From positions 1 to 64,000 of the IMG/VR virus record IMGVR_UViG_2877251553_000001: a stretch of DNA of 64,000 nucleotides. One strand, written 5' to 3'. The notes under the pieces were generated by a model. That model had not been told where the DNA came from and searched no databases. It worked only from the letters and a program-made list of their open reading frames with translations. Of this stretch, positions 18,751 through 57,357 are shown in pieces. Positions within the stretch are counted from its first letter, which is position 1; each line of letters opens with the position of its first letter. This DNA is from a virus (Duplodnaviria; Heunggongvirae; Uroviricota; Caudoviricetes). Made by a program: the position numbers and the translations under genes.

Positions 18751-19245
18751 ATGGATCGAGAGTTAAAAAATCTGACGCTGAATATCAGTCAACTGGCGGC
18801 ACTGTCAGGTGTACATCGCCAGACTGCTGCGGCAAGGCTGCAAAATCTACCCGTTGCAGGGGGGCATGAAAGCAACCTCAAGCTTTATCGGGTGGTTGAT
18901 ATTGTGTCGGCATTTCTGGCATTGCCACCGCCGGTTGCAGAAGGCGAAATGGACGCGCATGAGCGCAAAGCCTGGTATCAGTCTGAACGTGAGCGTCTTA
19001 AGTTCGAACAGGAAACGGCACAACTCATTCCGGCCAGTGATGTCAGACGGGAGTTTGCCATCTGGGCAAAAGCGGTCGTGCAGGTGCTGGAGACATTACC
19101 GGATATTCTGGAACGTGACTGCGGTCTGCAGCCTGCCGCTGTGAGCCGTGTTCAGTCCATTATTGATGATCTGCGCGATCAGATAGCCCTGCGGGTGACT
19201 GAAGCAGGTGCGGATGATGAGGAGGAATTACAGCAGGAGGAGTAA
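18751..19245 (+). CDS. terminase small subunit (putative)
   Basis: 164-aa ORF with N-terminal HTH-like region and acidic C-terminus, directly before the terminase large subunit. Confidence 0.55.
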   Translation: MDRELKNLTLNISQLAALSGVHRQTAAARLQNLPVAGGHESNLKLYRVVDIVSAFLALPPPVAEGEMDAHERKAWYQSERERLKFEQETAQLIPASDVRREFAIWAKAVVQVLETLPDILERDCGLQPAAVSRVQSIIDDLRDQIALRVTEAGADDEEELQQEE

Positions 19246-21346
19246 TGCTGAATCAGGAAACCGCAAAGGCAGCACGAACCGATTCAGGTTATATCCTTCG
19301 CGCACCGAGACGAATGCGGGTTGCTGATGCCGTTGCTCAGTATATGCGGGTGCCCATGGGGGCAGGGAACTCAGTCCCGTGGGATCCGCTGGTGGCACCG
19401 TATGTTATTGAGCCGATGAACTGCCTGGCCTCGCGTGAATACGACGCAGTGATATTTGTTGGCCCGGCACGAACCGGCAAGACTATCGGCCTGATTGACG
19501 GCTGGGTGATTTACAACGTGATTTGCGATCCTGCTGATATGCTGATCATTCAGATGACGGAGGAAAAAGCCCGCGAACACTCCAAAAAACGACTCGCCAG
19601 AACGTTTCGCGTCAGCCCGGAAGTGGTCAGTCGCCTGAGTCCGAACAAAAATGACAACAACGTTTATGACAGAACATTCCTTGCTGGTAACTACCTGAAA
19701 ATCGGCTGGCCGTCAGTCAATATCATGTCCTCATCAGATTATAAATGCGTCGCGCTGACGGATTATGACCGTTTTCCGGAAGATATTGATGGCGAGGGGA
19801 TGCTTTCTCTCTTGCCTCAAAACGTACCACCACATTTATGTCCAGCGGTATGACGCTGGTGGAGAGTTCCCCCGGCAGGGATGTGAAGGATGTGAAATGG
19901 CGACGGACTTCACCGCATGAGGCTCCACCAACCACGGGGATCCTGTCGCTCTATAACCGTGGTGATCGCCGTCGCTGGTACTGGCCCTGTCCACACTGTG
20001 GTGAGTATTTTCAGCCCTGCGGCGATGTGGTTGCTGGTTTCCGTGATATTGCCGATCCCGTGCTGGCAAGTGAGGCGGCTTATATTCAGTGCCCTTCCTG
20101 TTCAGGACGGATTATGCCTGAACAAAAACGTGAGCTGAACGGACGTGGGGTCTGGTTGCGGGATGGTGAATCCATCAATGCGGATGGCAGTCGTTATGGT
20201 GATCCCCGACGCTCACGTATTGCGTCATTCTGGATGGAGGGTCCGGCAGCTGCTTACCAGACACTCTCGCAACTCGTTTACAAACTGCTTACTGCAGAAC
20301 AGGAATACGAGACAACCGGAAGTGAAGAAACACTCAAGACGGTTATCAATACCGACTGGGGATTACCTTATCTTCCCCGCGCCAGCATGGAGCAACGAAA
20401 AAGTGAACTGCTTGAGCAGCGGGCAGAGCCAGTTCCTTCCCGCAGTGTGCCGGATGGCGTTAATTTCCTTGTGGCGACAGTGGATGTGCAGGCGGGACGT
20501 CATCGCCGTTTTGTGGTTCAGGTAACGGGCTATGGCAGCCGTGGCGAACGCTGGATTATTGATCGTTACAACATCACGCAGTCATTGCGCGGTGACAGCG
20601 ACGGGGAGAGCCAGCGAATTGATCCGGCCAGCTATCCGGAAGACTGGGATGTCCTGCTGACGGATGTTTTTCATAAAAGCTGGCCGCTGGCCTCCGATCC
20701 TTCTCAACAAATGCGACTGATGGCAATGGCGGTGGACTCCGGCGGTGAAGACGGGGTCACTGATAATGCCTATAAATTCTGGCGTCGTTGCCGTCGTGAT
20801 GGCCTTGGTAAACGTATTTACCTGTTTAAGGGCGACAGCATCCGGCGCGCAAAACTGATCACTCGTACATTCCCTGATAACACCGGACGAACGGGCCGAC
20901 GGGCGCAGGCCGCAGGTGATGTGCCGCTCTGGCTTCTTCAGACGGATGCACTGAAAGACCGGGTGAATAACGCGTTATGGCGTGACTCGCCAGGTCCCGG
21001 CTATGTGCATTTCCCTGACTGGCTGGGGAGCTGGTTTTACGACGAACTGACGTATGAAGAGCGGAGCAGTGACGGGAAATGGAGTAAGCCTGGTCGCGGT
21101 GCCAACGAAGCTTTTGACCTGATGGTGTATGCCGAGGCTCTGGTCATTCTGCATGGATACGAAAAGATCCGCTGGCCGGATGCACCGGAGTGGGCGAGCC
21201 GGGAAACCTGGCTGGAGTGTGTCCAGGACAGTACCGAACCGTCATCCTCACCGGAACCGGTATCCACGCCTGTTAAAAAACAAAAACGGAAGAAAACAGT
21301 AACTGACGATGTTAACCCCTGGCTGACTTCCGGAGGATGGTTATGA
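19245..21346 (+). CDS. terminase large subunit (lambda gpA-like); frame broken by a -1 shift near 19790-19850
   Basis: Two ORF-track pieces (19245-19853, 19838-21346) that together resemble gpA, including a CPHCGE zinc-finger-like motif. Confidence 0.8.
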
Positions 21347-21555
21347 ACCAGAATGATATCGAAGCCATGATTCAGCGTTATATGGAAGCTGAAATGGCGG
21401 TGCTGGACGGAAAATCCGTCACCTTTAATGGTCAGCAGATGACCATGGAAAACTTATCTGAGATCCGGCAGGGACGGCAGGAGTGGGAGCGCCGCCTTGC
21501 GGCTCTGATTACACGACGACGGGGGCATCCCGGGTACCGGCTGGCGAGGTTCTGA
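21337..21555 (+). CDS. head-tail joining protein (gpW-like)
   Basis: 72-aa ORF between terminase and portal; C-terminal RRRGHPGYRLARF resembles lambda gpW C-terminus. Confidence 0.55.
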   Translation: MVMNQNDIEAMIQRYMEAEMAVLDGKSVTFNGQQMTMENLSEIRQGRQEWERRLAALITRRRGHPGYRLARF

Positions 21556-55767: not shown

Positions 55768-55848
55768 TAGTTGAAAAGGTGGGCACCTACGTTACCAATA
55801 CAGGCTTAATGGCTACATACGGCGGTCAGTTTACGCTTACACTCATAT

Positions 55849-57096
55849 TGAAGTGGCACACTGAATTTGGCCACCTGAACAGAGGTGATATGCTCACCTC
55901 AGAACAACACAGGTGCTCCAATGAAAAAAAGAAATTTTAGCGCAGAGTTTAAACGCGAATCCGCTCAACTGGTTGTTGACCAGAAATACACGGTGGCAGA
56001 TGCCGCCAAAGCTATGGATGTTGGCCTTTCCACAATGACAAGATGGGTCAAACAACTGCGTGATGAGCGTCAGGGCAAAACACCAAAAGCCTCTCCGATA
56101 ACACCAGAACAAATCGAAATACGTAAGCTGAGGAAAAAGCTACAACGCATTGAAATGGAGAATGAAATATTAAAAAAGGCTACCGCGCTCTTGATGTCAG
56201 ACTCCCTGAACAGTTCTCGATAATCGGGAAACTCAGAGCGCATTATCCTGTGGTCACACTCTGCCAAGTGTTCGGGGTTCATCGCAGCAGCTACAGATAC
56301 TGGAAAAACCGTCCTGAAAAACCAGACGGCAGACGGGCTGTATTACGCAGTCAGGTACTTGAGCTACATGGCATCAGCCATGGTTCGGCCGGAGCAAGAA
56401 GCATCGCCACAATGGCAACCCGGAGAGGCTACCAGATGGGACGCTGGCTTGCTGGCAGGCTCATGAAAGAGCTGGGGCTGGTCAGCTGTCAGCAGCCGAC
56501 TCACCGGTATAAACGTGGTGGTCATGAACATGTTGCTATCCCTAACTACCTTGAAAGGCAGTTCGCCGTGACCGAGCCAAATCAGGTGTGGTGCGGTGAT
56601 GTGACCTGTATCTGGACGGGTAAGCGCTGGGCGTACCTCGCCGTTGTTCTCGACCTGTTCGCAAGAAAACCAGTGGGCTGGGCCATGTCGTTCTCGCCGG
56701 ACAGCAGGCTCACCATGAAAGCGCTGGAAATGGCATGGGAAACCCGTGGTAAGCCCGGCGGGGTGATGTTCCACAGCGATCAGGGCAGTCATTATACGAG
56801 CAGGCAGTTCCGGCAGTTATTGTGGCGATACCAGATCAGACAGAGTATGAGCCGGCGCGGAAACTGCTGGGATAACAGCCCAATGGAACGCTTCTTCAGG
56901 AGTCTGAAGAACGAATGGATGCCGGTGGTGGGTTACGTAAGCTTCAGCGAGGCAGCTCACGCCATAACGGACTATATCGTTGGATATTACAGCGCACTAA
57001 GACCGCACGAATATAACGGTGGGTTACCCCAAACGAATCGGAAAATCGATACTGGAAAAACTCTAACTCGGTGGCCAGTTTTTGTTGACCACTTCA
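55849..57096 (+). mobile_element. IS911 copy 1
   Basis: Ends TGAAGTGGCACACTGAATTTGG... and ...GGTGGCCAGTTTTTGTTGACCACTTCA; orf[22 protein letters not shown] recognised. Confidence 0.85.
55921..57090 (+). CDS. IS911 transposase OrfA/OrfB
   Basis: OrfA 55921-56223 and OrfB 56250-57167; OrfB C-terminus differs from copy 2 through a C4 versus C5 run. Confidence 0.8.
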
Positions 57097-57357
57097 GTTT
57101 ACGCCGTCAGGCGTTGCTTCTGCATGGAAAGTTAAGAAATTATTCATGTTTCGCCTCGCCTGAATGATTCTGTAACTCATATTTGCCCAACAATTCGTCC
57201 GCTTCCTAAATAGCTTCTGGTACGCCATTGAGCAGTGACATAACCGCGCCAATCATTAACTTGTCTCTGTTGCTGGGGCTGGCCCCTTCAAGCCAGAACC
57301 CTAAAACAGTCTGAACCTGTTCGATGCGACATTGCGCTTCAATGAGCTGGATGTTGG

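Follow-up and report, generated by a model that had tools for sequence, protein, structure and literature searches.

Shigella genomes carry many insertion sequence (IS) elements and pseudogenes. Phase-variable loci typically contain long homopolymer tracts (usually at least 7 bases), which are located in the 5' part or the promoter of surface or restriction-modification genes and vary within populations. A further known system is an artefact: in the passages considered here, the ARAMIS paper (PMC8574707) describes systematic PacBio errors as the loss, in most cases, of a single G or C from runs of 4 to 6 bases, and Yassine et al. (2022; PMC8795385) ascribe differences between PacBio and Illumina genomes to unpolished homopolymer indels. 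We analyzed a stretch of 64,000 nucleotides (positions 1 to 64,000 of IMG/VR record IMGVR_UViG_2877251553_000001; referred to here as the window), which contains a lambdoid prophage followed by a P4-like island and in which many unrelated genes are interrupted by -1 frameshifts at homopolymer runs. The original prediction, made from the sequence alone, had interpreted these frameshifts as homopolymer under-calling and not as pseudogenisation, and this interpretation is borne out by base composition, reading-frame restoration, comparison with sister genomes and the literature. We conclude with high confidence that the frameshifts in the window represent errors in the consensus of a PacBio long-read assembly that was not polished, and not biology; the split phage and transposase genes are almost certainly not real pseudogenes. 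This conclusion is carried by the identification of the source record, by the catalogue of deletions with its composition bias, by restoration of all reading frames and by a distribution of deletions among sister assemblies that is private and homoplasic.

The window matches GenBank record CP026825.1 (assembly GCA_002949915.1), a Shigella chromosome of 4.70 Mb, at 100% identity, and an exact-protein look-up retrieved a locus of the same record (L007) that corresponds to window positions 16245-22853 at 100% identity. CP026825 falls within the accession block CP026774-CP026878; this block is ascribed to Kim et al. 2018, as is, explicitly, the sister CP026832. The accession block and the attributed sister loci thus point to membership of CP026825 in the batch published by Kim et al. 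2018, which comprises 59 historical Shigella genomes and was sequenced with PacBio only. As far as the passages of PMC8795385 considered here go, this batch was not polished with short reads and was excluded from core-genome multilocus sequence typing (cgMLST) for "numerous indels in the homopolymers"; when genomes of identical strains from the two platforms, PacBio and Illumina, were compared, 9-584 cgMLST alleles differed, the comparisons covered 11 other strains of the batch, and strain ATCC 49346 (i.e., CP026832) showed 163 allele differences. This published discordance between two genomes of identical strains argues against genuine pseudogenisation, i.e., decay of the prophage and the IS elements by frameshift in this Shigella lineage.

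Alignments of the window were made with a collinear E. coli prophage (L001), with further E. coli references (L002, L005, L006 and L018) and with six sister Shigella chromosomes (L010-L015). Compared to the E. coli references and the six sisters, the window contained 31 single-base deletions and no homopolymer insertions; it was one base short at each of these 31 sites when homopolymer lengths were compared with those of related genomes, a check that had been proposed with the original prediction. While the frameshifts had initially been placed between positions 19245 and 57167, this range holds for 27 of the 31 sites only, as four sites are located before it (9297, 10009, 16300 and 17456) and four further deletions were found in the core DNA upstream of the window. 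The deleted runs were composed of G or C at 30 sites and of A at a single site. When hit rates were classed by restored run length, the proportion of deleted G/C runs rose from 1 of 913 runs with 3 bases to 16 of 215 runs with 4 bases (7.4%), 11 of 56 runs with 5 bases (19.6%) and 2 of 5 runs with 6 bases (40%). Among runs with at least 4 bases, 29 of 277 G/C runs were deleted as compared to only 1 of 665 A/T runs (0.15%; P = 2.9e-15; Fisher's exact test), and none of the 94 A/T runs with 6-9 bases was affected. Decay, on the other hand, would be expected to affect A/T runs as well and to include insertions, substitutions and larger deletions, which is not the spectrum observed here. G runs and C runs were deleted at an equal rate (approx. 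10.5% each), indicating that there is no strand effect; moreover, only four of the sites (16301, 37782, 40997 and 50146) are non-coding, so that coding sequence was not spared. Two apparent deletions outside homopolymers, observed in the comparison with L001 (a T at 37078 and an A at 37227), were rejected as such when the closer reference L018 was used, in which 37078 showed no indel and 37227 proved to be a G-run deletion.

Searches with intact reference proteins (tblastn) showed that ten prophage genes continue in another frame, i.e., those for the large terminase (TerL), the portal protein, the protease-capsid fusion, a DUF2190 protein, the tail tip protein J, Lom, the tail fibre, Tfa, a GIY-YIG protein and a Dcm-like methyltransferase; the IS110 (ISSso6), IS66 TnpC/TnpA, O-like HTH_36 and DUF6387 genes are also split. 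Together with the alignments, these searches confirmed that every gene initially named as split is indeed interrupted. A single-base deletion was present at every shift that was traced, as had been proposed, with the qualification that the split between OrfA and OrfB in IS2 and IS911 is partly due to a natural A6G frameshift site. When one base was put back at each of the 31 sites and the resulting proteins were compared with intact homologues, TerL, the portal protein, the capsid protein, the DUF2190 protein, Tfa, the GIY-YIG protein, the Dcm-like methyltransferase, the O-like protein, the DUF6387 protein, the IS110 transposase and IS66 TnpC and TnpA all showed 100% amino acid identity, and J, Lom, the lysozyme and the PerC-like protein were likewise full-length. 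Most split proteins are thus otherwise identical to their intact homologues, which is difficult to reconcile with pseudogenisation.

In the left part of the prophage (coordinates here and below are on the plus strand unless the minus strand is specified), the O-like HTH_36 replication gene is split at 9298-9300, where the window has C3 and the references have C4 (272/272 amino acids identical after restoration), and the C-termini of the PerC-like protein (10010-10013; G4 vs. G5 in L001, L005 and L017) and of the lysozyme (17457-17460; G4 vs. G5 in the reference) are changed. A further deletion (16301-16303; G3 vs. G4 in the references) is intergenic, between the DNA methyltransferase gene and the holin gene. 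In the head module, TerL is divided into pieces of 202 and 498 amino acids at 19796-19799 (G4 vs. G5 in the references; 700/700 identical after restoration) and the portal protein into pieces of 245 and 267 amino acids at 22138-22141 (G4 vs. G5 in the references; 502 amino acids and 100% identity after restoration), while the fusion of a ClpP protease and the major capsid protein is interrupted at 24308-24312 (G5 vs. G6 in the references; 675/675 identical after restoration) and the DUF2190 head decoration-like gene is split at 25381-25383 (G3 vs. G4 in the references). In the tail region, J is split at 34987-34990 (G4 vs. G5 in the references), lom shows three G-run deletions (37228-37230, 37431-37433 and 37606-37610) and encodes a full-length protein of 199 amino acids after restoration, a deletion just 5' of the tail-fibre gene (37782-37784; G3 vs. 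G4 in the references) is intergenic, and the tail-fibre gene itself shows two G-run deletions (40117-40119 and 40270-40273). Both affected runs in tfa are one base short (C3 at 42770-42772 and G3 at 42777-42779; 194/194 identical after restoration), the GIY-YIG gene on the minus strand shows three deletions (A5 to A4 at 43123-43126, G4 to G3 at 43145-43147 and C3 to C2 at 43817-43818; 257/257 identical after restoration), and the Dcm-like methyltransferase gene is split at 45534-45536 (C3 vs. C4 in the reference; 477/477 identical after restoration). Across window positions 42318-46817, the comparison with E. coli KKa014 revealed 6 gaps and no mismatches. At approx. 18405-18420, a G7 run of the window reads GGGGGTGG in E. 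coli L005; as this region is only 96.5% identical, this may represent either a real difference or a miscall.

In the island, the DUF6387 gene is affected by four deletions in or upstream of the gene (C at 50146-50148, C at 50472-50474, G at 50523-50526 and G at 50872-50874), and its product of 293 amino acids is intact in five sisters. The gene for the IS110-family (ISSso6) transposase is split at 52198-52201 (C4 vs. C5 in the sisters), and on the minus strand IS66 TnpC is split at 54524-54527 (C4 vs. C5 in the sisters) and IS66 TnpA is truncated at the N-terminus by a deletion at 55725-55727 (G3 vs. G4 in the sisters). A comparison internal to the window is provided by two copies of IS911. 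Copy A (55849-57096) has C4 at 57027-57030, as compared to C5 in copy B and in the sisters, and the C-terminus of its OrfB is shifted; copy B (59987-60888 and 62196-62548, minus strand) retains the full C5 (G5 on the plus strand, approx. 60053-60057). Over 902 nucleotides (56196-57096 in copy A; 60888-59987 in copy B), the two copies show no mismatches and one gap, so that the C4 versus C5 difference initially reported between them stands, although the positions given for it were off by about 10 nucleotides.

Comparisons with the sister chromosomes covered 18 kb of common sequence, with a further locus (L016, i.e., CP026825.1 positions 1795610-1805609) representing the source record. Over these 18 kb, single-base deletions of this kind occurred only in CP0268xx members of the batch. 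CP026823, CP026805 and CP026832 each carried private G/C-run deletions, and none were found over the compared regions in an NCTC assembly, in CP045784 or in CP026807, nor in the core segment covered by one draft assembly. In the core DNA from rtcB to proA (11.3 kb upstream), eight genomes differed by 5 substitutions and 8 indel sites; all 8 indel sites were G/C-run deletions and were limited to CP026823, CP026805, CP026832 and CP026825. The deletions were shared by {L014, L016}, {L013, L014, L016}, {L014, L015} and {L013, L014}, a pattern that is mutually incompatible with any tree. Two of the core deletions are private to CP026825, one of them in proB, for which CP026825 shows a called product of 320 amino acids as compared to the 367 amino acids expected; in total, the 10 kb of CP026825 core DNA upstream of the window contained four G/C-run deletions (positions 795, 2160, 2182 and 9009 of L016). 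We also observed that pepD and proB are split in the sister batch assemblies L013-L015. In a 6.67-kb portion of the island compared among seven genomes (the window and the six sisters), the window showed 6 deletions and no private substitutions, and genomes of the pairs {L010, L014} and {L011, L013}, which share single-nucleotide polymorphisms, differed in indels by such deletions only. Deletions that are private to assemblies and homoplasic, that accumulate without a single private substitution and that extend to proB and to intergenic DNA are not expected from decay of a prophage and its IS elements.

Truncated products were looked up among approx. 15 billion proteins. For 5 of the 7 truncated products, a single contig was found; the N-terminal fragment of TerL was present on 2-3 contigs and the N-terminal fragment of the portal protein on 6-8 contigs. 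By comparison, all three of the neighboring intact proteins looked up were found on at least 1000 contigs. The portal G4 allele was absent from all 1,852 complete E. coli genomes that carry the portal segment, and was present in Logan contigs from unrelated runs (L020, L021, L023 and L024), which are 1-2.7% diverged from the window. Lesions shared by descent with close relatives or reproduced in independent assemblies, as pseudogenisation would predict, were not seen, with the exception of the portal allele in these few contigs. The portal G4 allele could be either a rare genuine or hot-spot mutation or a recurrent platform error. The TerL fragment is shared with two Logan runs whose contigs hold further homopolymer deletions; these contigs were considered as independent proof of a real frameshift and rejected, given their own extra homopolymer deletions and the lack of a strain link. 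As the head module is present in approx. 1,800 complete E. coli genomes, recurrence of the TerL error in a few noisy runs is to be expected.

Genuine pseudogenisation is the alternative that survives best, and even so we consider it very improbable. It is favored by the general richness of Shigella in IS elements and pseudogenes noted above, by the presence of real lesions in the window (i.e., an IS2 with target duplication in the tail-fibre gene and a nested IS) and by the occurrence of the portal G4 allele in otherwise clean contigs of other samples; the deletion spectrum, the restored identities, the sister comparison and the published PacBio versus Illumina discordance weigh heavily on the other side.

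A real mutational process at G:C runs could also be hypothesized, in which a -1 slippage mutator (e.g. stationary-phase mutagenesis by DinB/Pol IV, or a mismatch-repair defect) acted independently in each historical stock over decades of storage. According to the title of Kim et al. 2018, the strains are historical isolates from collections. Pol IV and stationary-phase mutagenesis classically produce -1 frameshifts in short mononucleotide runs, and the deletions are independent in each strain. Under such a process, natural mutation would recur at the portal G5 run as a hot spot, and its shortening in unrelated samples would be explained. Slippage at A:T runs, however, also climbs steeply with run length, yet none of the A/T runs with 6-9 bases was hit while sixteen G/C runs with only 4 bases were, and no base substitutions accompany the deletions. 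In addition, extrapolation from the 31 deletions in 64 kb and the 4 deletions in 10 kb of core DNA implies approx. 2,000 frameshifts per genome, which would inactivate many essential genes, and Yassine et al. (PMC8795385), in the passages considered, trace the differences between genomes of identical strains to unpolished homopolymer indels. A slippage mutator therefore appears even less probable than pseudogenisation. Functional recoding or phase variation, in which short G/C runs would serve as programmed frameshift sites or contingency loci, has a negligible probability and is effectively refuted by the non-coding sites and the sister comparison: true programmed -1 sites do exist in the window (in IS911 and IS2, described below) and the lambda-type G/T chaperone pair is intact, but the affected G/C runs of 3-5 bases lack slippery heptamers and occur at arbitrary positions both in non-coding DNA and in approx. 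20 genes that are not related to each other; thousands of genomes are fixed for the intact forms, and we know of no contingency tracts as short as these.

Several observations weigh against consensus error as the explanation. The comparison covered assembled sequences, so that the error at any individual site is probable and not directly demonstrated. Membership of CP026825 in the batch, and with it the probable sequencing method, was derived from the accession block and the attributed sister loci; CP026807, which belongs to the same block, was clean over the compared regions. The Logan contigs with the portal G4 allele were free of further homopolymer indels over up to 11.6 kb, and the TerL fragment recurred in two Logan runs, even if their contigs look noisy. 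Finally, the uneven spread of the deletions is not predicted by a uniform error model. A 9.6-kb stretch of tail genes (25384-34986) was free of deletions, as compared to approx. 5.8 expected (P about 0.003), while the 11 kb from 34986 to 46000 (J, lom, tail fibre, IS2, tfa and the restriction-modification block) contained 15. This clustering rules out a simple per-run error rate as sufficient; it may result from weaker consensus polishing in prophage and IS DNA that is repeated elsewhere in the genome.

Consensus error in an unpolished assembly nevertheless remains the explanation that we favor. The consensus caller would have omitted one base from some of the G or C homopolymers, the more often the longer the run, and as a result gene callers would report about 20 genes as fragments. 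The DNA itself most likely contains a complete lambdoid prophage, inserted at thrW between att repeats, in which the IS2 in the side tail-fibre gene would be the only genuine lesion among the genes tested; after it comes a P4-like island whose IS110, IS66 and IS911 elements are ordinary. The suggestion that the prophage may be intact thus holds in so far as the tested structural genes are full-length once the 31 bases are restored and the att repeats are present, but not for the tail-fibre gene, which is genuinely disrupted by IS2; the thrW prophage should be regarded as probably complete save for this insertion and not as a decayed remnant. CP026825.1 and several sister records would contain a false frameshift about every 2 kb and, unless polished, are unreliable for pseudogene counts, calls of prophage integrity, cgMLST alleles and annotation of IS transposases. 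The phenomenon is almost certainly an already documented sequencing and assembly artefact, with no new biology.

The window starts with proA, followed by the tRNA-Thr gene thrW (1369-1444). The prophage, of 47 kb and with a head module of the mEp460/HK97 type, is bounded by attL (1399-1446), a 48-bp direct repeat that represents the 3' part of tRNA-Thr(CGT), and by an identical attR (48643-48690). Beyond the prophage lies the P4-like island with IS110/ISSso6, IS66, IS911 and a nested IS3-family element. In the six sister Shigella chromosomes, which do not carry the prophage, thrW joins the P4-like island directly; the prophage is therefore specific to this strain and was inserted in tandem, at an att site that was occupied before. 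Positions 63111-63599, located at the distal end of the island, represent an inverted partial copy of 1442-1930 (the 3' end of the integrase gene and att-proximal bases) with 98.4% identity; this copy suggests that a second integration left a remnant here or that an IS element mediated an inversion. The right arm of the prophage includes a moron block (43113-46979) with genes for an EcoRII-type restriction endonuclease (45765-46979, minus strand, intact), the Dcm-like methyltransferase and the LEM-3-like GIY-YIG protein; this block is common to E. coli KKa014, with no substitutions over 4.5 kb.

The IS2 in the tail-fibre gene (40989-42317) is flanked by a 5-bp target duplication (CAGGT), and we thus consider its insertion genuine. 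Its left inverted repeat shows a C5 to C4 deletion at 40997-41000, and its OrfAB is broken by a G4 to G3 deletion at 41436-41438, in addition to the natural frameshift site. The programmed -1 frameshift sites (A6G; A AAA AAG at the overlap of OrfA and OrfB) are intact in both IS2 (41396) and IS911 (approx. 56172-56178), and the two-reading-frame split of IS2 InsC/InsD and of IS911 OrfA/OrfB is natural. Copy B of IS911 harbors a nested IS3-family element (approx. 60885-62198), by which it is split; the same nested arrangement was observed in the sisters L010 and L014.

Compared to the known systems, IS911 and IS2 of the window share with IS3-family programmed -1 frameshifting the two-reading-frame layout with an A6G site. 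The natural sites of this family are A-runs and are unchanged here, whereas the extra lesions (57027-57030, 41436-41438 and 40997-41000) are located in other parts of the elements and shorten G/C runs; the A AAA AAG heptamer at the overlap of OrfA and OrfB concerns IS911 and IS2 only and none of the 31 deletion sites. The features of phase-variable loci were likewise not found, as the affected runs have 3-6 bases and occur at arbitrary positions, including non-coding DNA. With genome reduction in Shigella by IS expansion and pseudogene formation, the window shares the organism group, the many IS elements (IS2, IS911, IS110/ISSso6, IS66 and IS3-family) and one genuine disruption. Shigella pseudogene formation would, however, be expected to show a mixed spectrum and common ancestry, and the point frameshifts in the window show neither. 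Compared to the PacBio-only artefact, as described in the passages of PMC8574707 and PMC8795385 considered here, nothing substantive differs, and clustering in prophage and IS DNA is a feature that these passages do not mention. The deletions in the window are without counterpart in assemblies of close relatives outside the accession block, and the batch from which the window probably comes has been described as unpolished. Moreover, the window and the artefact, as far as these passages describe it, both show truncated proteins, including products of core genes, and in both the only changes are deletions, mainly affecting G or C runs of 4-6 bases.

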